Of a DNA stretch of 64,000 bases, positions 8,097-40,808 are shown one piece after another. The DNA is taken from NCBI GenBank assembly GCA_963734495.1, contig CAVTHK010000002.1, forward strand, positions 64,001-128,000, written 5' to 3'. Both the position numbers and the translations under genes were made by a program. The stretch comes from an uncultured Spirochaetota bacterium (GTDB lineage Bacteria; Spirochaetota; Spirochaetia; SZUA-6; CAVTHK01). How positions within the stretch are numbered: the stretch's first letter is position 1; each line of letters opens with the position of its first letter. A model generated the notes under the pieces. That model was not told where the DNA came from, ran no database searches, and worked only from the letters and a program-made list of their open reading frames with translations.

Positions 8097-9615
8097 ATGA
8101 CCCTGCCTGCTCTCCGCGGAGCGATCGGCTCCGACCCGTCGCTCATCGAACGCTGCAGCCGCGACATGAGCCGCTACCGCGTGCGGCCTCGCCTGGTCGC
8201 CTCCCCCGCGGACGAGGGGGACGTGCTGCGCCTCCTCGCCTACGCGGCGGAGGAGCGCGTGCCGGTGACCTGCCGCGGCGCCGGCTCGAACCTGTCGGGG
8301 TCCGCGGTCGGCCCCGGCATGGTGATGCTGACCGATCGCATGAGCGGCCTGCTGGCGATCGGCGCGAGCAGCGCGACCGCGCAGCCCGGCATCAAGTACG
8401 AGCAGCTCAACCGCCTCGCCGCGGCCAAAGGCCTCGCGCTTCGCTACGACGTGAGCTCGGGGCACTTTTCGACGATCGGCGGCAACATCTCGACCAAAGC
8501 GGGCGGCCTGCGCAGCGTCCGCTACGGGAACGTGGCGCGCTGGGTCCTCGGCGTCCGCTTCGTCTCGCCGGAGCTCGGCGTCGTGGACACGCGCGTTGGG
8601 GTCCCCGCGCCCCTGGCCGCCGCCCTGCAGGCGCTGCGCTCCGATCTCCTGGCCGACGCAGCCGGCGCGGACCGCGCTGGCGCGCCGCGGCTCGCTCAAG
8701 ACGGCAAGCGGCTACAACCTGCGCGGGCTGGTCGACGCCGCAACTCCCGAAGCCATGGTCGCGCAGCTGATGGTCGGCTCGGTGGGGACGCTGGGCGTGC
8801 TCACCGAGGTCGAGGTCGCGCTCCTCCCCGCGCCGCGCGCTCAGATCCTCCTCGCCGCGTTCTTCCAGCGGCTCGAGGACGCCTGCGGCCTGGCGGCCGA
8901 GCTCGCCGCGACGGGGCCCTCCGCGCTCGAGGCGATGGACGACGAAGGGACCCGGCTGCTCCTGGCCCTGGCGCCCGCCGGCGATCTGCCGGCGGCCGCC
9001 GATGCGGGCGCGGTCCTCCTGGTGGAGCACGAGGAGTCGGCCGCAGGATCGCCCGGCGCGGTCCCACCGGATGCCGAGGCTGCGCTGCGCATCCTCAACG
9101 CGCGCGCGCTTGCCGTCTGGCGGGTGCCGCCGTCCGCGGCCGAATCCGTCTGGAACGTGCGCTGGTCCATGCTCACCTCGATCCGCCGGGCGCACGAAAC
9201 CGACGACCGGCGCTTCCTCTCGTTCGTCGACGACCTCGCCGTTCCCATCGGGGCGCTCGGGTCCTTCCTCGAGGAGGTCACGAGGATCTTTGAGGCTGAA
9301 GGTATGCGCTCGGTCATCTACGGCCATCTCGGCGAGGGCAACCTTCACATGAGACCTCTGATCGAGAGGCAGGGCTGGCGCGAACGGGTCCACCGCGTGG
9401 CCGACCGCTGCTTCGAGGCCGCGCTCCGGCGGGGCGGCACGCTCACCGCCGAGCACGGCTCCGGCCGCAACCGCGCGCCCTTTCTGGCCCGCGAGTGGGG
9501 GGAGCGGCTGTACGGCTACTTCGGGAGGGTCAAGACGATCTTCGACCCCGGCGACCTGCTGAACCCGGGGGTCATGTTCTCGGATCGCGACTTCACGGAG
9601 GAGCTGGAGTTCTGA
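8097..9615 (+). CDS. FAD-binding oxidoreductase (GlcD/D-lactate dehydrogenase-like), frameshifted near 8660
   Basis: N-terminal RGAGSNLSG and TIGGNISTKAGG in one frame; KTASGYNL, GSVGTLG, GHLGEGNLH, TAEHGSG and FDPGDLLNPG in another. Confidence 0.85.
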
Positions 9616-10379: not shown

Positions 10380-11595
10380 CAGGCCCCTGCCTTCGGGCGC
10401 AGTCGCCCCCCGCGAGGGCGCGGCCTTCCCGGGCGCGCTCTCGGGGGGCGCGCCCGGCGCGGGCGGCGCCGTTGCGGGCGCCTCAGCCGGAACCACGTTC
10501 TGATAGTACGTCGGGTCCGCGCGCAGGAGCGCCGCCTTGAGCAGGCGCAGCCTCACCACCACGCTGCCCTGGTCCGCCGGGTACCAGAAGAAGCGGTGCC
10601 CGTCGTTTCTCCAGTAGCGCGGCTCGACCTCCCCCCTGAACGGCGGCCTCACCTGCTGCAGCCACTTCAACGAGGGATCGCGCAGGGTCGCCTTCGGATT
10701 CTCGAACCGTATGACCGAGTCGTGGACCCCGCGCTCGTCCGCGGGCGCCCAGTCGGTCGACTGCACGTAGCGGATCGCGCCGGTTCCCAGGTCGATGGAC
10801 TGGATGACGGCCGAGTGCTTGAACGTACCGTCCGTGCCGCGGAACAGGATGATGTCGCCCGGCCTCAGGTCCTCTATCCGCTCGCTCGTGACCTCGGTGT
10901 ACCGGTTGCGGGGGTCGAGGAACGACAACCCGACGTACTGCGCGGCCCGCGACGGCGCCACGGCCCAGGCGCGCCCCAGCTCGACGTCCGCGTCGACCCC
11001 GTGCGCGAGCATCACCGCCTTCTCGATGTCGTAGACGAACCCCGCGCAATCGACCCCGAGGCCGGCGACCGCGTACAGGTAGTTGTAGACGTCGGTCTGG
11101 CTCACCGTGCCGCCGAAGCGCAGCACATGGACGCGCGTCTCCGTGCCGGGGTAGGGCCCCATCTCGAGCAGCCCGAGGAGCTTGGGGTCGTACGAGACGG
11201 TGTAGCCGCGCCGCTCGAGGTCGAAGATCACCGCCTGCTCCCGCGGCTCCATCAGCCGCGTCACGTACGCGCGGAACGCGTCGGAGGCCAGGACGGCGTC
11301 GATCAGGGGCCAGAGCTGCTCGGGGGCGCCTTTGGCTCCGAGCACGAACTCCTGCGTGTAGCCGGGCGTGCCTTCGCGCTCGCCGTTCATCCCGAAGGGC
11401 ATGCGCAGGGTCATCGCCTGGCCGCCGATGCGATAGAGCTTGAAGAACCTGCGATACGCGGTATCGATCAGCCGCTCGACGGTCGCCTCGACGGGCCCCT
11501 TGACCCGCGCGGGCGCCGGGGCGGCGGGGGCGTCGGCCTCCAGTCGAGCGAGCAGCAGCAGGCTCGAAAGCCAGCCTGCCGAAGGTGCGCAGCAT
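10287..11595 (-). CDS. Secreted protein with an NlpC/P60-like papain-fold domain; probable frameshift near the start
   Basis: GVDCAGFV, LRPGDIILF and KHSAVI (Cys-His dyad); signal-like start split between frames near 11565; both ends uncertain. Confidence 0.6.
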
Positions 11596-11867
11596 GCCTT
11601 CTCCCGTGGCGCGATTATGCCCGCCGCCGCCGCGCGCGTCCACAGGCCGGGACGGGCCGGAACGTTGCCGCCGGCGCCGCGAATGGTGTTGACCGCGCCT
11701 GACGGGCAAAGATACCTTACAAACCTGAGGGGAGAACGCCGGGCTGCGCCCGGGCCGGCCTGACAGGCGGCCCGGCCGGGGTATGCCCGGCGGAGCCCCT
11801 CGATACCAGCAGGCCTGGCCTCGACGGCCGGGCAGCCTCGCCCCGGGCGGCCAGGCAGGGAGGCACT

Positions 11868-12782
11868 ATGCCGGCACGATCCAGCTGGAAAGGATTCCTC
11901 AAGCTCAGCCTGGTCTCGGTCCCGGTCAAGGCTTACACCGCCAACGCCACCGGAAGCGAGATCACGCTGCACCAGCTTCACTCCAAGTCCCACACCCGGA
12001 TCCAGTACAAGAAGGTCGCGCCCGGGGTGGGGGAGGTGGGCGCCGAGGAGATCGTCAAGGGCTACGAGTACGCCAAGGGCCAGTACGTGGTCATCGACGA
12101 CGACGAGCTCGACAAGCTGCGCACGGAGAGCGACAAGTCCGTGCGCATCGACGGGTTCATCAAGCCGCAGCAGGTCGACGGCATCTACTACGGGGGCCGC
12201 ACCTACTACCTCACGCCGGACGGGGCGGTGGGGCAGAAGCCCTACACGCTCCTGCTGCGGAGCATGGAGGCCAACGGGGTCTGCGCGATCGCCGAAGTCG
12301 TGATCTCCCAGAGGGAGCAGGTGGTGCTGCTGCGGCCGGTGGACGGCGTGCTCGCCATGACGGTGCTGAACCGGCACGACCAGGTCAAGCTGGCGTCGGC
12401 CTTTAAGGATGAGATCCAGGAGAGCCCCGCCACCGAAGCCGAAGTGGCGCTCACAAACACGCTCATCAACGCTTCGATGATCCAGAGCTTCGACTTCGCG
12501 CGCTATCGCGACACCTACAAGGACAAGCTCACCAAGCTGATCCAGCTCAAGGTCGAAGGGCAGGAGATCGTGCAGGTGCACGATCCGGAGGAGCCCAAGA
12601 TCATCAACCTCATGGAGGCGCTCAAGCGCAGCGTCGCGGAGGCGCAGGCCGCGGGCGCGGCCCGGGAGGCCGGAGGCAACGGCAGCTCGAGCGAGGCGGA
12701 CAAGGCCGACCTCAAGCAGGCGCCCAGCGCAAAGGCGCGGAAGACCACGCAGACCACGCAGAAGAAGAGGAAAGTTGGATAG
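11868..12782 (+). CDS. ku: NHEJ DNA-end-binding protein Ku
   Basis: RSSWKGFLKLSLVSVPVKAY, EIVKGYEY, YRDTYKDKL, INLMEALKRSV and a basic C-terminal tail. Confidence 0.97.
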   Translation: MPARSSWKGFLKLSLVSVPVKAYTANATGSEITLHQLHSKSHTRIQYKKVAPGVGEVGAEEIVKGYEYAKGQYVVIDDDELDKLRTESDKSVRIDGFIKPQQVDGIYYGGRTYYLTPDGAVGQKPYTLLLRSMEANGVCAIAEVVISQREQVVLLRPVDGVLAMTVLNRHDQVKLASAFKDEIQESPATEAEVALTNTLINASMIQSFDFARYRDTYKDKLTKLIQLKVEGQEIVQVHDPEEPKIINLMEALKRSVAEAQAAGAAREAGGNGSSSEADKADLKQAPSAKARKTTQTTQKKRKVG

Positions 12783-13737
12783 AGCAGGCGGCGACCGGCT
12801 CCCGCGGTTCATCCCGCCGATGCTCGCCGTCCTCGGCGAGCCGTTCGATTCCGAGGAGCACCTGTACGAGGTCAAGTGGGACGGCATTCGCGCGCTCGCC
12901 CTGGTCGAGCGCGGCGGGCTGCGCCTGCTCAGCCGAAACGAGCAGCCCCTCGCGTCCCGCTACCCGGAGCTGGCGGAGCTGTCCGCGCTCCGCCCCGGGG
13001 TGGCGCTCGACGGCGAGATCGTGGCGCTCCGCGACGGCAAGCCCGACTTCAACGCGGTCCTGCGGCGCGGGGGCCTGGGCAGGGGCAAGCGATGGGGTCC
13101 GCCCGAGTCGTCCGGCCGGGATGCGGCCGGCGACGCCCCGGTGACGTACGTAGCCTTCGACATCCTCTACAAGGACCACGGGACGCTGATGCCGCTCCCG
13201 CTCGAGGAGCGGCGCAAGCACCTCGAGGAGCTGCTCGCGCCCGCGATCTCGCCGCGGCTCGTGCTCTCGGAGGGCGTGCGCGGGGCCGGGACCGCGCTCT
13301 ACCGCGAGGTCTGTGAAAAAGGGCTCGAAGGCGTCGTCGCCAAACGGCTTGCGAGCGCCTACGCGCCGGGCAAACGCAACGGCGCCTGGGTCAAGATCAA
13401 GCGCCGCCTCCGCGCGGTCTGCCTGGTCATCGGGTTCCTGGAGAAAGAAGGCCGCGACTTCCAGTGCCTCCTGGTGGCCACGAACCAGGTCCCGGGCGCC
13501 GATCCCGAGCCCGGCCCGCTGCGTTACGTGGGCCGGGTGGGCGGAGGGTTCAGCGAGGCCGTGCGGCGGCGGGTCAACGAGCTGATCTGGCCGCGGATCG
13601 TCCGCTCGCCGATCGTCCCCTGCCCCGAGCGGGGCGTGTGGATTGAAGCGGCCCTGTTTTGTACTGTAAGCTTCGCCGAGCTCACCGAGGCCGGCCTGCT
13701 GCGGGCCCCGGTGTTCGAAGGACTGGTCGAAGCGTAA
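12775..13737 (+). CDS. Stand-alone ATP-dependent DNA ligase (adenylation domain + OB fold; LigD-LIG/LigC-like)
   Basis: Intact motifs EVKWDGIR, LDGEIV, YVAFDIL, GLEGVVAKR and WVKIK; OB fold YVGRVGGGFS..LRAPVFEGL; overlaps the ku stop codon. Confidence 0.92.
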   Translation: MDRAGGDRLPRFIPPMLAVLGEPFDSEEHLYEVKWDGIRALALVERGGLRLLSRNEQPLASRYPELAELSALRPGVALDGEIVALRDGKPDFNAVLRRGGLGRGKRWGPPESSGRDAAGDAPVTYVAFDILYKDHGTLMPLPLEERRKHLEELLAPAISPRLVLSEGVRGAGTALYREVCEKGLEGVVAKRLASAYAPGKRNGAWVKIKRRLRAVCLVIGFLEKEGRDFQCLLVATNQVPGADPEPGPLRYVGRVGGGFSEAVRRRVNELIWPRIVRSPIVPCPERGVWIEAALFCTVSFAELTEAGLLRAPVFEGLVEA

Positions 13738-13740
13738 GCG

Positions 13741-14908
13741 ATGGAGGGCAACGATTCTCTTGCCGGCCGCGAGCTGGCGTTCACGGGTCGCCTCGTGTCC
13801 ATGACCCGGGCGGAGGCGATCGAGCGGCTCGCGCGAGCGGGGGCCCGGTGCGTCCGGACGCCCACCGAGTCGACCGACCTGCTGGTCGCCGGTCAGGCGA
13901 GGGGGCCGCTCCTCGAGGACGGCGGCCTCGCGGGCAACCTGGCCCGCTTCCGCGAGCTCAAGGAAGACGGAGCTTCGATCCGGCTCATCGAGGAGACCGA
14001 GCTCCTGCGGCTGCTCGGCGTCCCGGAGGAGATCGAGGACTTCACCCGGCTCTACACCACTGTGCAGGTCAGCCGCATCGTCGACGCGCCGCTCTCCGAA
14101 GTGCGCGGGTGGCTGCGCAACGGCCTGATCCAGCCCGCCCGCGTAGCCAAGCGCCTCGCGTGGTTCGAGTTCCGCGACATCGTCCACGCCCGCTCGCTCA
14201 GCCGCCTCGCGGCGTCGGGGATCCCGGCCGCGCGCATCCGGCGCAGCCTGGGCGAGATCTCGCGGTGGCTTCCCGACGCGGACCGGATGATCGGCCGCAT
14301 CGAGGCCTACGACCGGCGGCTGCGGGTGCGCCTGCAGGGCGGGGGCTGGGCGGAGCCGAGCGGCCAGATGCTGCTGGATTTCGCGGCCGAGCGCGGCGGC
14401 GAATCGCGCGTGGCCGTTTTCCCGCGCGGGCAACGCGGAAGCGCGGCTCGACACCGCGCCCTGGTTCTACCAGGGCGTCGCAGCCGAGGAGCGCGGCGAC
14501 CTGGAGGGCGCGGCCGAAGCGTACCGGCGCGCCGCCGGCGCCGTCCCGGAGCCCGAGACGTGCTTCAACCTCGGCAACGTTCTCTACGACCTCGGCCGCG
14601 AGGTCGAGGCCGCCGAGCGGTACCTGCAGGCGATCGAAGCGGACCGCGACTTCGCCGAGGCCTGGAACAACCTCGGCAACTCGATGGCCGCCCTGGGAAA
14701 GCTGGAGGACGCGGTGCACGCCTACGAGACGGCGCTGGCGCTCGAGCCCGCGTATGCGGACGCGCACTGCAACCTCGCGGCCGTGCTGGAGCGGCTCGGC
14801 CGGCCGGCGCAGGCGCTCGAGCACAGGGCCTCTTGCGAGAAAGCCTACCCGACGCGGCGGCACCTCGAGCTGCTGCACGGCGGAGCTGCGGACGAGGGCG
14901 AGGAGTAG
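13741..14908 (+). CDS. BRCT + MerR-type HTH + TPR protein; frameshift near 14430
   Basis: LAGRELAFTGRLVSMTRAEA..TDLLVAG (LigA-type BRCT); YTTVQVSRIV..VRGWLRNGLIQP..FEFRDI (MerR HTH); about 4 TPRs in the shifted frame (FNLGNVLYDLG, AEAWNNLG, ADAHCNLA). Confidence 0.85.
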
Positions 14909-14926
14909 GCGGCTCTTCCGGGGCGG

Positions 14927-16943
14927 CTACAGGTACCTGCTCAGCGCCGCAATGGCGGGCGCAAGGTCCTGCGGCTTCGAGAGCGAGGGCCGGAACAGGT
15001 CGCCCGTGCGCTCGACGCGGGCGGGCGCGTTGGCGAGCGTGAAGTCCGCGACGCGGAAGTCGCTTTCGAGCTCGTCCCACTGCAGCGGCATCGAGACGGA
15101 GGCTGCTTCCACCGGGCGCACCACGTAAGGCGGCACGACGGTCTGCTCCCGCCTGTTCTGCAGGAAATCGACGTAGACCTTGCCCTCGCGCCGGCCGATC
15201 ACGCGCTCGACCGTGGCGATGTCGCCGTGGTCGCGCACCAGCAGGCGCGCGACGGCTTCCGAGAACATGCGGCTCTGCTCGTACGTGTAGCCCGGCGCGA
15301 GCGGGATGAACACGTGAAGCCCCGATGAGCCCGACGTCTTCAGGAACGGCTCCAGCCCGAGCCCGCGCAGAAGCTTGCCCGCCTCCCGCGCGATCTTGAT
15401 CACGCTCGAAAAGGGAGCGTCCTTGGGGTCGAGGTCGAGGACGGCCCAGTCGGGCGAGTCGAGGCTTCCGCGACGGGAAAACCAGGGGTGAAGGTCGATG
15501 CTCCCCAGGTTGATCAGGTGCAGCAGGGTGCGCCGGTCGTTGCAGACGATGTAGCGCGCCGGCTCCTCTCCCTCGCGGGCCACGTCGGCCGTCTCGACCC
15601 AGTCGGGCAGGCCGTCGGGGAGCGCCTTCTGATAGAAGGACTTGCCGCGGATCCCGTCGGGCCAGCGGTACATGTGCAGCGGCCGCTCCCGCAGGTACGG
15701 CAGGATGTGGTCGGCGATCCGGTCGTAGTACGCGTACAGGTCCGCCTTGGTGTAGCCCTGCTCCGGCCAGTACACCTTTCGGGGATTCGTGAGGGGCGAC
15801 GGCGCGGGCGCTGCCGCCGCGCGGAGCGCGGCCTTTGTCCGCTTGCGTCCCGTGACGGCGATGAGCCGCCAGTCTTCGGAGCGTCCCGCGCGATACGGGC
15901 TTTCGGCGCGCTTGGCGACGATCGCCGGCAGCCCCGCTCCTGCGGCCGCTTCGGCGAGCTCCGCCCCTCGCTCGGCAATCGGGTCGACCGGCAGCACGTG
16001 AGGCAGCTCCGGAAGCAGGTTGCGCAGGGCGGCCTTTCGCTCCCGCAGCGGCAGCCCGCGCAGGTCCCACTCCTCGGCGTAGAGCACGTCGTAGAGGTAG
16101 AGCAGGATGCCCTGCCCGTCGCCCGCGAGCCTGGCGTCGAGGGCCTCGCGGGAGGGGCGGCCTTGGGCATCGAGGGCGACGAGGACGCCGTCGAGGAGCG
16201 CCGTCTCGGCCCGGACGGACTCGAGCTCCTTGACGATGCGCGGCAGGAGCGGCGCCAGGTCCTCCTTGTCCGCGCTGAGGCTCGGCGCTCGACCCTTCGA
16301 TCGCCGCGAGCACCCTCCTCCCGACAAAGCCGGGCTCGAACATCCAGGCGGGGTCGGAGAAGGGCTCGAAGCCCTCCGCCGGCTCCATCAAGCCGGGCTT
16401 GCGGGGGGCCGGCGCGCGCCGCGCCCGCGAGAGGTCGACGCCGGCGAACAGGTCGCTGCCCGAGCCCGCGTAGCGGTCGCGCGCCTTGAAGAGCAGCCAG
16501 TCCCGGCCGCCTTCGCGCTTCGTCTGCACGAGGTGCCACTCCCCGCGCAGCCGGCGGCCCTTGAGCACGAGCTTGAGCTCCCCTTCGGCAAGGGCCTGGG
16601 TGACGTCCTTGCTCCGGAGCAGCTCGTAGTCCCCCGTGTCCCAGATCTGCATGGTACCCGCGCCGTACTCGCCCGTGGGGATGACGCCGGAGAAGGTCTC
16701 GTACTCGAGGGGGTGGTCTTCGGTGCGGACCGCGAGCCGCTTGTCCGCGGGGTCGTACGAGAAGCCTTTGGGCACCGCGAACGAGGCGAGGGCTTCGCCC
16801 GCCACGAAGCGGAAATCGTAGTGAAGCCGGCGCGCCTCGTGGCGGTGCACGACGAAGACCGGCCGGAGCCGCTGCTCCGCGGCCGGCTCCGGCTCGGGCG
16901 TCCTCGAGAAATCGCGCTTGCGTTTGTATTCCGCGGTCCCCAT
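14927..16943 (-). CDS. ligD: LigD-like protein: phosphoesterase + inactivated ligase domain + primase-polymerase; frameshift near 16280
   Basis: PE: YKRKRDF, HEARRLHYDFR, EDHPLEY, GEYGAG. POL: LTNPRKVYWP, FYQK, DLDP, KTSGSSGLHV, YVDFLQN. Middle domain has EPGFVGRR in place of ExKxDGxR. Confidence 0.9.
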
Positions 16944-17035
16944 GGCCGCGGTCAATGTAACCGCCGGATGAGCGCGTTTCCAAGCGGGAACCCGGGCTTG
17001 ATCACCGCCCCGTCGCTGCGCTATCTTCTGAGGCG

Positions 17036-17284
17036 ATGCCGATCTACGAGTACATGTGCCGCGAGTGCGGCACTCGCAACGAGTTCCTCGAAGGCGTGAC
17101 CAGCGAGAAGGTGGACAAGGTCTGCTCCGAGTGCGGGAGCGGCGATCTCACCAAGCTGATTTCGATGGCGGCCTTTACCGTCGCCGGCGGCCATTCGTCG
17201 GCCGAGGGCGCCTGCGCCTGCGGCCACGAAGGCCACGGTCCCGAAGGCGGCTGCTGCGGCGGGGACTGCGCCTGCAACAACTGA
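17036..17284 (+). CDS. FmdB family zinc-ribbon protein
   Basis: MPIYEYMCRECG..CSECGS..KLIS with a Cys-rich tail. Confidence 0.9.
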   Translation: MPIYEYMCRECGTRNEFLEGVTSEKVDKVCSECGSGDLTKLISMAAFTVAGGHSSAEGACACGHEGHGPEGGCCGGDCACNN

Positions 17285-17301
17285 GGCTCGCGCCGGCGGG
17301 C

Positions 17302-18248: not shown

Positions 18249-19196
18249 TCAGCCGCGGGCCGTCAGCCCGGCCGCGGCGAGGATCCCGCGGATCGCCTCT
18301 TTGTCCTTGTCCTCGGCCGGGAGCAGTGGACGGCGGGGGAAGCCTCCGCGGTAGCCGACCATGTCCATCGCGGCCTTCAGGCCGGGCACTCCGTAGGTCG
18401 CCGTGATCGCGTCGTTCAGGGCGAAGACGCGCAGCTGCAGCGCCCGCGCCTCGTCGTGCCTGCCCGCGGCGACCGCTTCGACGATGGCGACGCTCTCGTC
18501 GGGCGCCACGTTGGCGAGCGCCACGACGCCGCCGGTCGCGCCCAGCGCGCACCCGGCGTACAGGACGCTCGCGGTGCCGACGAGCACCGCGAAGTCGGGG
18601 CTCACGCGCCTGATGATGTCGGCGAGCTGCGGCACGTTGCCGCTCGAGTCCTTGATGCCCTTGATGTTCGGGTGGGTCGCGAGGCGCGCCACGAGGTCGG
18701 CGCTCATGTTGACGCCGGTGAACTTCGGGACGTTGTAGAGGAGGACCGGCACCGGGCTCGCGTCGGCGACCTCGCGGAAGTAGGTCTCCATCCTCTTGTC
18801 CGAGAGCTTGTAGTAGTGGGGCGTCACGACGAGGACCGCGTGCGCCCCGGCTTCGGCGGCGAGCCGGCTCAGGCGGATCGTCTCGCGCGTCGACTCGCAG
18901 CCCGTGCCGCCGATGACCTGCCTGCCTGGTTCACCAGGCCTGCCCGGGGCGCCGGCTCCGGGCTTGCCTGGCTGACCGGGCTTGCCGGGAGCCGCCGCCT
19001 CCACGACCGTGCGCAGCACGGCGATCTTTTCTCGTTCGTCCATAAAGACGTTCTCGCCGTTCGACCCGAAGACGACATAGCCGGCGAGCTTCGTGCGGTT
19101 CCAGCGCTCCACGTTGAACCGGAGGGCGGCGTGGTCGATCTCTCCGGCCGAGTCGAAGGGCGTGGCAATGGGGGGATAGACTCCAGCAAAACGCAT
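18249..19196 (-). CDS. Dihydrodipicolinate synthase family aldolase (HOGA-like)
   Basis: GVYPPIATPF, GSNGE, LYNVP and GIKDSSG (Schiff-base Lys). Confidence 0.9.
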   Translation of the reverse strand: MRFAGVYPPIATPFDSAGEIDHAALRFNVERWNRTKLAGYVVFGSNGENVFMDEREKIAVLRTVVEAAAPGKPGQPGKPGAGAPGRPGEPGRQVIGGTGCESTRETIRLSRLAAEAGAHAVLVVTPHYYKLSDKRMETYFREVADASPVPVLLYNVPKFTGVNMSADLVARLATHPNIKGIKDSSGNVPQLADIIRRVSPDFAVLVGTASVLYAGCALGATGGVVALANVAPDESVAIVEAVAAGRHDEARALQLRVFALNDAITATYGVPGLKAAMDMVGYRGGFPRRPLLPAEDKDKEAIRGILAAAGLTARG

Positions 19197-19294
19197 GATT
19201 GTTTATAGGCGCAGCGCCGCCGCCGCGTCAACCTGAATGCTTGCAGCGCCGCGGCCCTGCGACTACACTGCCCCCCGACGACAGGGGGGCAACA

Positions 19295-32275: not shown

Positions 32276-32351
32276 CGGCCGCAGAGCATAGATCGGCCGG
32301 CGGCCGGCACGCAAGGTGTGCAAAGGCGGCGCGCCGGTGCTAAGCTCGGGC

Positions 32352-32879
32352 ATGGACTTCTTCGAGGCGATCGCCAGGCGGCACAGCTATCGGGGCGCCT
32401 TTGAGCCGCAGCGGGTCCCGCGCGAGGACCTGCGCGCCATCGTGCAGGCGGGCATCCAGGCACCTTCGGGCTACAACGGCCAGTCGACCAGCTTCGTCGT
32501 GGTGGACAGCGAGCCGCTTGTCGCGCGCATCGCCGCGATCACGGAGAATACGACTGTCGCCGGGGCGCCCGCGTTGATCGCGGTGGTGATGGATCCCGGG
32601 GCCACGGCCGACAGAAAGTTCTGCTTCGGCGTCGAGGACTACGCCGCCGCGACGGAGAACATGCTGCTCGCCATCACGGCGCTGGGCTACGCGAGCGTGT
32701 GGCTCGACGGAGCCCTGCGGAGCGAGGGCCGCGCCGCGGCAGTCGGCGAGCTGCTCGGCGTGCCGCCAGACAGGGAGGTGCGCGTGATCCTCCCCGTCGG
32801 CGTCCCGGCGGAGGCGCATCGGCAGAAGGAGAAGAAGCCCTTCGCGGAGCGCGCCTCGTTCAACCGCTGGGAGCGTTAG
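32352..32879 (+). CDS. Nitroreductase family protein
   Basis: AIARRHSYR, APSGYNGQ and ENMLLAITALGYASVW. Confidence 0.9.
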   Translation: MDFFEAIARRHSYRGAFEPQRVPREDLRAIVQAGIQAPSGYNGQSTSFVVVDSEPLVARIAAITENTTVAGAPALIAVVMDPGATADRKFCFGVEDYAAATENMLLAITALGYASVWLDGALRSEGRAAAVGELLGVPPDREVRVILPVGVPAEAHRQKEKKPFAERASFNRWER

Positions 32880-37137: not shown

Positions 37138-37626
37138 TCAGCCCGCCTCGGCGAGCAACCCTTCGAGGTCGAGGGGCAGGGTGGTCATGGAAAGCTCCCC
37201 GCCGGCGCGCTTCGGCCATCGCTCTTTCGGCCGGTCGCAGTAGAGCTCGACGCCGTTGCCGTCGGGGTCGCGCAGGTAGATCGCCTCGGACACGCCGTGG
37301 TCCGAAGCGCCATCCAGGGGGTAGCCGGAGTCTACGAGGCGCTTGAGCGTCGTCGCGAGCTCGCTCCGGCTCGGGTAGAGGATCGCGAAGTGGTAGAGCC
37401 CCGTGTGCCCGTGGGGAGGTGGGCTCGCGCCCTTTCCCGCCCACGTGTTCAGCCCGATGTGGTGGTGGTAGCCGCCGGCGGAGAGGAACACCGCCGAGTC
37501 GCCGTACCACTGCATCACGGCGAAGCCGAGAAGGTCGCGGTAGAAGGCCAGCGCGCGGTCGAGGTCCGCCACCGTGAGGTGGACGTGGCCGATCCGGACG
37601 TCCGGATGGGTCGACGGCCCGGTCAT
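37138..37626 (-). CDS. VOC/glyoxalase family protein (CatE-like single domain)
   Basis: IGHVHL, GYHHHIGLNTW, GLYHFAIL and DHGVSEAIYLRDPDGNGVELY. Confidence 0.9.
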   Translation of the reverse strand: MTGPSTHPDVRIGHVHLTVADLDRALAFYRDLLGFAVMQWYGDSAVFLSAGGYHHHIGLNTWAGKGASPPPHGHTGLYHFAILYPSRSELATTLKRLVDSGYPLDGASDHGVSEAIYLRDPDGNGVELYCDRPKERWPKRAGGELSMTTLPLDLEGLLAEAG

Positions 37627-38622
37627 CCGAGGCGCTCCGTCATCGAGTGCCACGCCTTGAGCACCGCCTCGATCTCGTTGTCGATCGCCGCGTCGCTCAC
37701 CTTCTTCTCAGGGTGCGCCTCGTACCAGGCAACCGACATGCGTGCGCCTTCGTGGAACGGGATGCGCGGCGTGAACTCGGGCACCAGGCGCCTGATCTTG
37801 CTGTTGTCGAACACGAGGCAGTGCGCCTTGTCGCCGAGGAGCCCGGGGCCGCGCGACGGGACGATGCGGCCGATGATCTGCGAAGGGACGTGCACGAGCT
37901 TCGGCTCGACTCCGAGCGCCGCGCCGATGCTCCGGTGGATCTCGTTCCAGGTGTAGACGAAATCGGAGGTGATGTGGAACGTCTCGCCGACCGCCGCGGG
38001 ATTCCCCATCAGCCCGACGAAGCCGGTCGCGAAGTCCCTGCTGTGCGTGAGCGTCCACAGCGATTCGCCGTCGCCGTGCACGACGATCTCCTTGCCCGCG
38101 AGCATCCGCGCCGCGACGGTGTAGTCGCGCGACCCGAAGGTCGTCGGGAACCAGCCGTCGCTGTAGGTGTGCGAGGGCCGCACCACCGTCATCGGGAAGC
38201 CGCCTTCGGCGTAGGCCCGCGCGAGCCTCTGCTCGCAGGCGATCTTCTTTTGCGAGTATTCCCAGAATGGATTGAAGGCCGGCGTCGCCTCCGTGATGAC
38301 GTAGTGTGCGCAGGGGCTTGTGGTAGACGGATGCCGAGCTGATAAAGATGTACTGCCGCGTCTTTCCGCGGAACAGCTCGAGATCGGCCTCGATGTGCGC
38401 GGGTTCGTACGCGATGAACTCCGCGACCGCGTCCCAGGTGTGGCCGCGCAGCGCCTGCGCCGCGGCGGCCCTGTCCCGGATGTCGGCGCGGATCGACCGC
38501 GCGCCCTGGGGCACGGGGCTGTTGCCGCGGTTGAGGACAAAGACCTCCCACCCGCGCCGCAGCGCCTCCTTTGCCGCTTCGAGCGAGATGTTGCCGGTCC
38601 CGCCGATGAACAAGACTTTCAT
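37623..38622 (-). CDS. NAD-dependent epimerase/SDR protein; frameshift near 38305
   Basis: MKVLFIGGTGNIS and YIFISSASVY; then WEYSQKKIACE and VRPSHTY in another frame. Confidence 0.85.
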
Positions 38623-38742: not shown

Positions 38743-39789
38743 ATGACATCGCGCGAGCGGGTGCTGGCCGCGCTGCGCCGCGAGCAGCCGGACCGCGTCC
38801 CGTGGGTCGAGCTTTCGGTCGACAGGCCCCTCGCTCAGCGGCTGCTGGGCTGGAGCGGGACCGCGGCGCCCGCCGCCGACCTCGAGCACAACGCGTACAC
38901 GCTGGCCGAGATCGCGGAGCTGGCCGGCCACCTCGGGCTCGACGATCTCTTCTACGTCCTGCGCGCGCCCGTGTACGTCAAACGGGTCGCCGGCAAGGAC
39001 GGCAGGGTCTTCTACGGCGACGGCCTCATCCGATCCGAAGCGGACCTCCCGATGATGCAGCTCCCCGATCCCCGCGACCCGCGCCTCTACGACGAGGCGC
39101 GCGCGTTCGTCGCGGCCAGGGGCGAGCGGGCCGCCGCGTTCATCACGCGGGCGGGCATCTTTTCCACGATCATGAGCATGGGCATCGAGGGCTTCTCGTA
39201 CGCGCTCTTCGAGAACCTGCCGTTCCTCGAGACGGTGCTCGACCGCTACTTCGACTGGTCGATCGCGGTGGCGGAACGCGTCTGCGGCATGGGGTTCGAT
39301 TTCTACGTGACCACCGACGACATGGCGCACAAGACCGGGCCGCTCTTCTCCCCGCGGGTCTTCCACGACCTCGTGATGCCCCGCTACCGAAAGCTCGCCT
39401 CGAAGGTCACCCTGCCGTGGGTGATCCACAGCGACGGGAACATCGAGCCGCTCCTCCCGGACCTGATGACGCTCGGCATCGCGGCGATCCACCCCGTGGA
39501 GAGGGGCGCCATGGACATCCGCGCGATCAAGGCCCGCTACGGCCGGCGCCTCTGCCTGCTGGGGAACGTGGACCTGAACATCCTCGGCGACGGCACGGTC
39601 GCGGAGACGGAGGACGAGGTGCGCGGCCTGATCCGCGACCTCGGCCCGGGGGGCGGCTACATCGTGTCGAGCGGGAACAGCCTCGCGAGCTACCTCAAGC
39701 CCGAGAACGTAGAGGCGATGGCCCGCGCGATCAGGGAGCACGGCGCTCTGGCCGCGCCCCGGAGTCGGGAAGGAGGAGGTAAAAAATGA
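38743..39789 (+). CDS. Uroporphyrinogen decarboxylase/MtaA-like superfamily protein (second paralogue)
   Basis: MTSRERVLAALRREQPDRVP, IHSDGN and GGGYIVSSGNS. Confidence 0.85.
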   Translation: MTSRERVLAALRREQPDRVPWVELSVDRPLAQRLLGWSGTAAPAADLEHNAYTLAEIAELAGHLGLDDLFYVLRAPVYVKRVAGKDGRVFYGDGLIRSEADLPMMQLPDPRDPRLYDEARAFVAARGERAAAFITRAGIFSTIMSMGIEGFSYALFENLPFLETVLDRYFDWSIAVAERVCGMGFDFYVTTDDMAHKTGPLFSPRVFHDLVMPRYRKLASKVTLPWVIHSDGNIEPLLPDLMTLGIAAIHPVERGAMDIRAIKARYGRRLCLLGNVDLNILGDGTVAETEDEVRGLIRDLGPGGGYIVSSGNSLASYLKPENVEAMARAIREHGALAAPRSREGGGKK

Positions 39790-40335
39790 AGGTCGTCTGC
39801 CTGTCGGGAAGCCGCAACCGCGAGGGCCAGACCGGCCGCGCGCTGGGCGCGCTCGTGCGCGGGCTCGAGGCCGCGGGGGCGAGCTGCGAGCAGCGCTGGC
39901 TCCCCGAGCTGCGACTGGAGCGGTGCCGGCAGTGCAACGCCGACGGCTGGGGCCTCTGCAGGAGCGAGGGCCGATGCATCATCGAGGACGATCTCGGCGG
40001 CCTCGTCGACAAGCTCGCGGCCGCCGACCTCTGCGTGTTCGCGACGCCCGTCTACTTCGGCGACCTCGCAGAGAGCCTGCGCGCGTTGCTCGACCGGCTG
40101 ACGGCGCACCACGCGGCACTCCGCGGGCCTCGCCCGCATCGAGGGCCGCCGCGCCGCGGGCCTGTGCGTCGCCGGCGGTGGGGGAGGCGGGGGGCCGAGC
40201 TGCCTCGCGAGCCTCGAAAAGGTACTGCGCACCTGCGGGTTCGAGCTGATCGACGTCGCAGCAGCGAGGCGCCAGAACCTGGAGCAGATCCTGCCGTTGC
40301 TGGAGCAGCGGGGCCGCAGCCTCGCGAAATCCTGA
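39786..40335 (+). CDS. Flavodoxin/iron-sulfur flavoprotein-like protein; frameshift near 40125
   Basis: SGSRNREGQT, CRQC..C..C and FATPVYFGD; GLCVAGGGGGG in another frame. Confidence 0.8.
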
Positions 40336-40415
40336 CCGCGGCGGCGGGCAAAAGGGGTAGCCATCCCGGGCGGAATCCGCTATGTTTCCGCCAGTCTGAA
40401 GCAGGAGGCAACAGG

Positions 40416-40808
40416 ATGCGTTTTACAAAGGGTGGCGGTCTCGTGCTGATGGTCGTGGTCATCGCCCTGTCGTCGTGCACCACGTTCCAGCTTTCGGGCA
40501 CGCAGGTCACGAAGCAGATCCCGAGCTACACCTCGGTGGGCACGTTCGACATCACGGTCGCCGTGCACGAGTTCCTGGGCGGGTCCGGCGGCCCCAACCT
40601 CCTGAACGTGACGGCGGATGCCATGGACACGGTGATCTACGACGCCATTCAGCGTGAGATCCAGAAGTACACCGCCGACGCGGCCGTGAACGTCACGGTG
40701 ACCTACCAGGCCACATTCGTCGACATCCTGCTGAACGCGATCACGCTGAACATCTATGCTCCGGCGCACGCGCACATCACGGGAACCATCGTCAAGTACA
40801 GCAAGTAG
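40416..40808 (+). CDS. Hypothetical lipoprotein
   Basis: AGGAGG ribosome-binding site; lipobox LSS-C; strong codon bias. Confidence 0.75.
   Translation: MRFTKGGGLVLMVVVIALSSCTTFQLSGTQVTKQIPSYTSVGTFDITVAVHEFLGGSGGPNLLNVTADAMDTVIYDAIQREIQKYTADAAVNVTVTYQATFVDILLNAITLNIYAPAHAHITGTIVKYSK

Follow-up and report, generated by a model that had tools for sequence, protein, structure and literature searches.

Non-homologous end joining (NHEJ) in bacteria is described as a system of Ku and LigD only, as seen in the sections drawn on here of PMC7969030, PMC6379672 and PMC5124664. In those sections of the Sinorhizobium meliloti study (PMC6379672) the words BRCT, TPR and tetratricopeptide do not occur, and it is noted there that little is known on the regulation of the NHEJ genes. 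For the eukaryotic pathway, the BRCT domains of Pol lambda, Pol mu, TdT and Lig4 (with XRCC4) are described as mediating protein contacts, with BRCT being mentioned only for eukaryotic polymerases in the part of the source concerned (PMC9226535). Here we analyse a gene, called X, that lies in a stretch of 64,000 nucleotides from an uncultured Spirochaetota bacterium (contig CAVTHK010000002.1, positions 64,001 to 128,000), this whole stretch being called the window. Gene X occupies positions 13741-14908 of the window on the + strand and follows ku and a stand-alone ATP-dependent DNA ligase gene (lig) in one operon, with ligD lying convergent to it. It encodes a BRCT domain, a MerR-like winged helix-turn-helix (wHTH) and a TPR domain. 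We propose that X is an additional, conserved part of an end-joining module centred on Ku, in which it would act as a DNA-bound adaptor of the Ku/ligase machine. To this proposal we give about an even chance, and it is very probable that X is functionally tied to end joining, be it as adaptor or as regulator. The usual account of bacterial end joining has two proteins, to which a further conserved partner is probably added here.

Linkage of X to Ku across genomes

In the window, Ku, a ligase and the polymerase and phosphoesterase domains of LigD are encoded together (Pfam and NCBIfam), with the ligase start overlapping the ku stop by 8 nt and X starting three bases past the ligase. In an order-level sample of 41 genomes, consisting of the window's genome and 40 others of its order, X is present in 13 and Ku in 12, and all 12 Ku genomes also have X (Fisher p = 1.6e-9, the genomes being kin and not independent); in the extra X genome without Ku, the contig ends 1.8 kb upstream of X. 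The arrangement ku-lig-X with a convergent ligD recurs in the loci of the 12 relatives; lig stands directly before X in 11 of them, and 10 have Ku upstream on the strand of X.

A wider scan of species representatives gave 80 loci, where the identities are 55-60% for Spirochaetota bins and 31-47% for many Planctomycetota. With the duplicates L032 and L075 and a further 22 loci having no match to the N-terminal part taken out, 56 loci remain, which together with the 12 relatives make up the 68 family loci. It is noted that 20 of the 22 loci left out are TPR-only or unclear and that the other two, L085 and L086, have ku-lig upstream and would add to the linked class. Among the 68 family loci, same-strand upstream ku is found in 44, lig in 43 and the ligD polymerase in 38, with at least one of the three in 49. 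Of the 19 loci without any of them, three have short flanks. A Pfam search of loci of this kind shows that X is immediately preceded by a ligase-like open reading frame in L065 and in L082, and that a LigD fragment lies downstream of it in L035; the layout of L066, which lay outside that search, is the same as that of L065. The sequence-only reading of this DNA had named homologues mostly unlinked to ku and ligD as a finding that would speak against its proposal; by the co-occurrence and synteny counts, they are linked in most loci, and this refuting condition does not hold.

The linkage is also seen beyond the phylum of the window. In an even sample of 201 Planctomycetota genomes, X is present in 31 and Ku in 28, with both present in 19 against 4.3 expected (odds ratio 28; Fisher 2.7e-12, a value overstated by kinship), and in 18 of the 19 genomes with both, ku lies upstream of X on the same strand within 4 kb. 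On proteobacterial plasmids, Ku is immediately upstream of X in six of the seven loci examined, the seventh being cut by the record start. In Paraburkholderia caledonica and Caballeronia, Ku is followed by X, which is annotated there as "tetratricopeptide repeat protein"; in Variovorax boronicumulans Ku is likewise followed by X, with ligD upstream; the order is Ku, X, LigD in Cupriavidus metallidurans and Variovorax paradoxus, and ligD, ku, X in Sinorhizobium medicae.

The spacing of the genes is tight. In 33 of 43 pairs, the gap separating the end of lig from the start of X measures -8 to +12 nt, where the X starts were set by alignment and not by the gap, and in Cupriavidus X stands between ku and ligD. 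A subunit made together with its partners would be placed in this way more readily than a regulator.

Some further features of these loci were observed. The motif [KR]xAP[ST] ahead of the basic end of the Ku C-terminal tail occurs in 27 of 33 X-linked Ku proteins (positions 12650-12782 in the window, with the alignment); as a sign of co-evolution with X it was dropped, since by eye it is also present in the Ku proteins of L118 and L126, which do not adjoin X. In several Planctomycetota (L073, L074, L077, L078, L080, L083, L084) the gene directly upstream of ku ends with ...FFKHEDSCAGPALARRFLDL. In L072 (6102-6803) a gene for a DUF72 protein immediately precedes X, neither ku nor lig lying between the two. 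Three Planctomycetota loci in genomes without X (L120, L121, L124) have tandem ku gene pairs, and in L120 and L121 one ku copy per pair has a tail like ...SK.ELYERAK....PGRSKM.K..L.AAL, resembling a SAP/Rho-N-like motif.

The family itself is large. Out of 1.84 billion, a profile of the middle, MerR-like domain, built from 65 sequences, matches 169 cluster representatives at E<=1e-30, and at E<=1e-10 the number is 1,234. Most of the top 150 matches fall into two size classes, one of 380-430 residues, where the domain is at about 100-225, and one of 280-320 residues, where it is at the N-terminus. A word-indexed search gives 324 X-family proteins at E<=1e-20. Where a source gives them a name, it is "tetratricopeptide repeat protein", "hypothetical protein" or, twice, "MerR regulator", none being a functional name, and our full-text literature search found no paper on a Ku-linked BRCT, MerR or TPR protein. 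X represents a real, conserved and uncharacterised family, of which the window's copy is an ordinary member with a probable assembly frameshift.

In a quick maximum-likelihood tree of 75 X proteins, from which the two short divergent rows L107 and L110 were left out, all 24 spirochaete sequences form one clade (SH-aLRT 98) nested among planctomycete sequences. This clade belongs to a group where Ku linkage prevails (38 of 43 members), and a second group is mixed, with 15 unlinked members, 9 linked and 3 with the ligase only; the distribution of Ku linkage on the tree requires at least seven forced changes of state. The X-Ku link is thus old and dominant and has been lost several times, and X can persist without Ku. 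Two cases of duplication were also seen: L045 and L056, on two contigs of one metagenome-assembled genome, carry two X paralogues with a DHH-family phosphoesterase gene after each, and L109 (G319:C4) carries a tandem pair of X-family genes in a planctomycete genome without Ku.

From this distribution it could be argued that X is a general DNA-binding or chromosome-associated protein and that its adjacency to ku arises from co-transfer in a mobile cassette and not from a shared function. The distribution is patchy, as X is found in 0 of an even sample of 200 other Spirochaetota and the spirochaete clade is nested as described above; many proteobacterial copies are on plasmids; and X carriers without Ku exist. 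Against it, the order of ku, an optional lig and X is kept in no fewer than four phyla or classes, where the identities are 27-60% and the genes around them are not the same, the two genes lie within 4 kb in 18 of the 19 Planctomycetota that carry both, and hitch-hiking alone would leave the translational coupling unexplained. We thus regard co-transfer without shared function as quite improbable.

Domains of X and the role they suggest

The three domains that the sequence-only reading had assigned to X, an N-terminal BRCT of the type found in LigA, a MerR-like HTH and about four TPRs, are all present, as seen from Pfam, NCBIfam, sequence matches to the Protein Data Bank (PDB) and structure models. 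The AlphaFold2 (AF2) models are those of a same-genus orthologue, with a predicted local distance difference test (pLDDT) score of 84.5, and of the window's own N-terminal part, with a pLDDT of 85.6 and a predicted template modelling (pTM) score of 0.74; the N-terminal part was folded separately because the full-length orthologue model gave TPR matches only in Foldseek.

The BRCT scores 17.6 bits with Pfam PF00533, under the cut-off of 21.3, and in NCBIfam its only matches are with the BRCT ends of LigA models and of a PolIII-epsilon model (E from 7e-10 to 1e-3). The best sequence match of residues 6-93 to a solved structure is the E. coli LigA BRCT (2owo, residues 597-670; E 2.2e-5), of which the TG, R, TD and G positions are retained. 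In the model of the N-terminal part these residues adopt the BRCT alpha/beta fold, with pLDDT >90 over residues 10-95, and the nearest folds are LigA (Foldseek 3.1e-4) and RFC1 (4.1e-4), with VIA Z scores of 9.1 (Rad4), 8.9 and 8.6 (RFC1). Alignment and model together suggest that the BRCT of X is of the type of the DNA-binding BRCTs of LigA and RFC1, and binding of X to nicks or 5'-phosphates is predicted on this basis.

The middle domain is matched by PF13411 (MerR_1) at residues 105-170 with 26.9 bits, over the cut-off of 21.6, and its family profile matches GlnR (5.7e-9) and TnrA (1.2e-5), as well as CarH and MerR. The folds matched by the model are those of SoxR, TipAL, RacA, CbpM and TnrA (VIA Z 6.9-7.3, which is middling) and of CvkR. 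The long C-terminal dimerisation coiled coil of MerR proteins is not seen in either AF2 model, where only an 11-residue helix (residues 180-190) and then short beta strands follow; for this helix and beta element (residues 177-215) no known counterpart turned up. A disordered linker separates the beta element from the TPR domain in the models. In the TPR domain, TPR_2 (2.6e-24) and TPR_1 (1.6e-21) are matched in Pfam, among three to four strong TPR matches in the second half of X, and the orthologue model has nine TPR helices, forming four pairs and a cap, with pLDDT 95-98 and a match to a consensus TPR at 6.8e-9 (rmsd 1.5). The conserved NLGN residues of this domain were considered as a peptide-binding ladder and dropped, being the consensus TPR motif. 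A PADLOC search with X gave only a weak HTH match (mad1, 1.1e-5) and thus no sign of a defence system.

The three domains of X are about equally conserved and the linker is not. Over 13 aligned homologues the mean column identity is 52%, which argues that the architecture is not due to chance. Among 65 aligned members, TPR families are matched in all 65, MerR_1 in 63 and the Pfam BRCT in 27 (E<=0.01, best 1.4e-8).

With these data, a model for the role of X can be described as follows. The module would consist of ku, lig, X and a convergent ligD with a dead ligase domain. X would sit on the DNA at or near the break, with its MerR-like winged helix binding the duplex and its LigA/RFC1-type BRCT, where present, binding the nick or the 5'-phosphate end. 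The TPR groove would hold a partner peptide, most likely the flexible tail of Ku or of a ligase, so that X would help to bring or keep together, on one break, Ku, the separate ligase and the LigD that processes the ends. The analysis shows the domains and their folds, the conserved place of X in the operon, its co-occurrence with Ku and the tight spacing of the genes, whereas the binding to DNA ends, the partner and the adaptor role as a whole are what we infer. The adaptor is favoured by where X stands in the operon and by its coupling, by the BRCT being of a DNA-binding type, by the equal conservation of the three domains and by the fact that the system is one of separate parts.

The last of these points is seen most clearly in LigD. 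The catalytic lysine of motif I of the LigD ligase-like domain is lost in the window and in all 13 ku-lig-X loci sampled (for example, EPGFVG or ELEFDG in place of KxDG); these loci (L014, L016, L017, L020, L022, L036, L037, L041, L064, L067, L073, L077, L083) were picked across clades from the 38 with a ligD polymerase. The ligase-like domain of LigD of the ku-lig-X type aligns, by tblastn, only to the nucleotidyltransferase (NTase) half of the ligase. By comparison, K-x-D-G of motif I is kept in five of five canonical LigDs (L040, L117-119, L126) and in six of six stand-alone ligases. Since ligation, end processing and end binding reside on separate proteins, the need for an assembly factor is plausible.

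The sequence-only reading had also considered that X supplies a BRCT in trans to a ligase that has none. The lack of a BRCT in the ligase ahead of X stands, as only DNA_ligase_A_M and DNA_ligase_A_C are matched in Pfam; this ligase has the motif I KWDG and scores 217.7 bits with TIGR02779, slightly below the cut-off of 227.75. The supply in trans is not borne out: the BRCT is absent in 16 of the 68 loci, 13 of these 16 being ku-lig-X operons, and a BRCT-bearing X stands directly after ku without a stand-alone ligase in L040, L043, L044, L057, L059 and L061. As the BRCT does not track the stand-alone ligase, its supply in trans is not the organising principle. The betaproteobacterial ku-X(-ligD) forms align only from the MerR-like part on. 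With both the BRCT and the ligase being variable, the constant core is the MerR-like wHTH plus the TPR, and the constant neighbour is Ku.

This constant core is also where a different role can be envisaged, namely that X controls the transcription of the end-joining operon, or of a damage regulon going beyond it, with the wHTH on an operator and the TPR, together with the BRCT where present, sensing a peptide, a protein tail or broken DNA and thereby switching ku-lig. Peptide-sensing regulators, for example those of the RRNPP family, combine an HTH with a TPR. The score of PF13411 over its cut-off with matches in 63 of 65 members, the profile matches to GlnR, TnrA, CarH and MerR, the fold matches that include SoxR, TipAL, TnrA and CvkR, and the persistence of X as a stand-alone gene in Ku-less genomes are all consistent with such a role. 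Moreover, a regulator would fill a gap, in view of how little is known on the transcriptional control of bacterial NHEJ according to the part of PMC6379672 mentioned above, and X would then be the first dedicated regulator of bacterial NHEJ. Several observations speak weakly against it. The models have the 11-residue helix and then beta strands in place of the long MerR-type dimerisation helix; the ku promoters of the relatives, read by eye, have spacers of 17-18 bp against the 19-20 bp typical of MerR activation; and X is last or in the middle of the operon with overlapping or near-zero gaps. Similarly, in 32 loci no 14-mer shared between the upstream regions of ku and ligD was found beyond shuffled controls except in L076 (14/14, GC-rich), and no 8-mer is common to more than 3 of 8 stand-alone X upstream regions. 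Taking both sides together, we consider the regulator possible and on the unlikely side.

The following points weigh against the adaptor. The BRCT is dispensable in 16 of the 68 X loci, about a quarter. A MerR-type wHTH with conserved DNA-contact positions plus a TPR is plausibly also the layout of a regulator. As the closest relatives of the query, the 68 loci over-represent its own type. Twelve of the 31 X-bearing Planctomycetota of the even sample have no Ku match, and five other unlinked X carriers have neither Ku nor the LigD polymerase, no completeness figure being available in either case. In the Ku-less genomes X keeps the BRCT-wHTH-TPR layout and stands among housekeeping genes such as SHMT, which implies that the family has or can acquire a Ku-independent role. 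Moreover, 9 of the 28 Ku-bearing Planctomycetota have no X; their Ku proteins have 27-35% identity to that of the window, and those loci that reach far enough show the canonical pairing with ligD, which implies that X is not needed by Ku in general.

The adaptor can also be stated in a stronger form, in which X is the obligate third subunit of a widespread end-joining variant, with the BRCT on the 5'-phosphate end, the winged helix on the duplex and the TPR on the basic C-terminal tail of Ku, bridging the separate ligase and the ligase-dead LigD. This form we hold only tentatively. If it is true, bacteria would have in X an equivalent of the BRCT and XRCC4-type scaffolds that serve NHEJ in eukaryotes, and a description with two components would fall short for Planctomycetota, for some Spirochaetota and for many Proteobacteria. 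In either form, X may account for the assembly of those systems in which the ligase is separate and LigD is ligase-dead. As the family is present in cultivable and genetically tractable bacteria (Sinorhizobium, Cupriavidus metallidurans, Variovorax), the proposal is directly testable.

The frameshift and the layout of the locus

The features of the locus are collected in Table 1. The break at 14430 pointed out by the sequence-only reading is indeed present in the assembly, as a 1-base break of X at 14419-14431. Frame 2 runs open from 14291 up to its stop codon (14906-14908), and skipping one base at 14419 joins the two frames of X into 389 residues.

Table 1. Coordinates of the genes and domains of the end-joining locus in the window
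Feature	Position	Strand	Basis
ku, first gene of the operon	11868..12782	+	PF02735 7.4e-44; TIGR02772 256 bits against a cut-off of 150
Stand-alone ATP-dependent DNA ligase (NTase and OB, no BRCT)	12775..13737	+	PF01068 (DNA_ligase_A_M) 4.2e-30; PF04679 (DNA_ligase_A_C) 1.2e-12
X, frame-1 part: BRCT, MerR-like wHTH, short helix and beta strands	13741..14424	+	frame 1 from ATG 13741, clean to ~14424
X, BRCT domain, residues ~4-95, LigA/RFC1 type	13750..14025	+	NCBIfam, PDB sequence match, fold match
X, MerR-type winged helix-turn-helix, residues ~103-176	14047..14268	+	PF13411 26.9 bits; profile against GlnR 5.7e-9; VIA Z: SoxR 7.3, TipAL 7.2, TnrA 6.9
X, conserved short helix and beta strands, residues 177-215	14269..14385	+	R197, G201, G208, Q209 and F214 invariant or >=90% in the family
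X, +1 frameshift site, GTTTTCCCGCGCGGGC, in the poorly conserved linker between the DNA-binding half and the TPR	14419..14431	+	frame reading, alignment
X, frame-2 part: remaining linker, TPR domain, stop codon	14426..14908	+	Pfam, alignment
X, TPR domain, about four repeats and a capping helix	14453..14869	+	Pfam TPR_1/2/11; orthologue-model helices 237-382; consensus-TPR and OGT TPR structures E 7e-9
ligD (phosphoesterase, ligase-like domain without catalytic lysine, polymerase; frameshifted at ~16293-16298)	14927..16955	-	Pfam, NCBIfam, motif-I check

In each of the 12 related genomes carrying the gene, the homologue of X reads as one open frame, the lengths being about 320-460 residues. 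There is thus no conserved recoding, and programmed frameshifting is rejected on this ground. The break most probably is a 1-base error of an indel-rich assembly and not the mark of a dead gene or a decaying locus, since the relatives have single frames, both halves of X are undamaged, and similar splits occur in ligD, at a GGG run at about 16293-16298 on the - strand between the phosphoesterase and the ligase-like domain, and in a GlcD-like oxidase gene at 8097-9612 (+), where FAD_binding_4 and FAD-oxidase_C lie in different frames. In addition, a nitroreductase, an epimerase and an FMN reductase (32292-32876, 37626-38618 and 39783-40805) give partial Pfam matches only, which together with the split GlcD-like gene suggests many indel errors in the assembly. 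A genome of few contigs with low marker completeness is probably the usual pattern of indel-rich long-read bins, and the window's genome consists of 18 contigs with a marker completeness of 83%.

The alternative is that X is a true pseudogene in the organism and that, with the split ligD, the entire end-joining locus is decaying. It is true that two of the four genes of the locus are frameshifted in the assembly, and real frameshifts are compatible with the outcome of the read search: no public run contains the stretch (the best share of words is 0.20), and among the contigs from four read runs (85% likeness) none spans 14419-14431, so that the frameshift is neither confirmed nor refuted by reads. 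By contrast, neither half of X has any further damage, with the frame-2 half running over 162 codons without a stop at 83% identity to the same-genus orthologue; the unrelated GlcD-like gene is split likewise and several other genes match Pfam only in part; and the contig number against the completeness would fit the long-read pattern mentioned above. The pseudogene is thus considered unlikely.

At the downstream end, 18 nt (14909-14926) lie between the stop codons of X and the convergent ligD. There is no terminator-like hairpin in this interval, and the transcripts of X and ligD would therefore overlap. A promoter and terminator scan of 11300-17300 gave no terminator and one weak minus-strand promoter-like site, and did not pick out the window's own ku promoter. 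Note also that elsewhere in the window, at 18252-19202 on the - strand, a DHDPS-family protein has a collagen-like insertion (PGKPGQPGKPGAGAPGRPGEPG) ahead of its Pfam-matching part.

Comparison with known systems

Taken domain by domain, X can be compared with several known proteins. To the C-terminal BRCT of E. coli LigA (2owo) it is similar in being closest to it by sequence, in the TG/R/TD/G positions and in the fold; the differences are that the BRCT of X is N-terminal in a non-catalytic protein, has an insertion of about 14 residues and is missing in about a quarter of the family. With the BRCT of RFC1 p140 (2ebu, 2k7f) the similarity is structural (Foldseek E 4e-4; VIA Z 8.6, with 27% identity over 81 residues), the sequence match being weak (E 0.6). 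The RFC1 BRCT is placed at the 5'-DNA binding site of RFC in the part of PMC9293004 concerned, whereas the binding of X to DNA ends is a prediction. Over its BRCT, X also matches chain B of the heterodimeric DNA ligase of phage PR1 (9hu3) with a VIA Z of 8.9; by its entry title, on which alone the comparison is based, this structure is a two-subunit ligase bound to nicked DNA.

For the middle domain, the best profile match is to GlnR and TnrA of the minimal MerR family, which like X have no long MerR coiled coil. The DNA binding of GlnR and TnrA is governed by a protein partner. They differ from X in being small stand-alone repressors of nitrogen genes, whereas X adds a BRCT, a conserved beta element, a TPR domain and a place in a repair operon.

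With the BRCT assembly of eukaryotic NHEJ, X has in common that a BRCT-bearing element outside the ligase core is tied to Ku-dependent joining, and BRCTs of Lig4 and Pol mu complexes are among its fold matches. By contrast, no common origin is detectable past the BRCT fold, and the parallel is a functional and unproven one.

Finally, with the canonical NHEJ of a Ku homodimer and LigD, the window shares Ku, a ligase and the polymerase and phosphoesterase domains of LigD. The differences are that the ligation resides on a separate enzyme, that the catalytic lysine of LigD is lost and that a conserved non-enzymatic gene is added. This gene, combining a BRCT of the DNA-end type, a DNA-binding type of winged helix and a peptide-binding type of TPR, is kept beside ku from Spirochaetota to Proteobacteria, and, as both teaching and models present bacterial end joining as Ku plus LigD, a conserved third gene of this kind would alter the notion of the minimal system.

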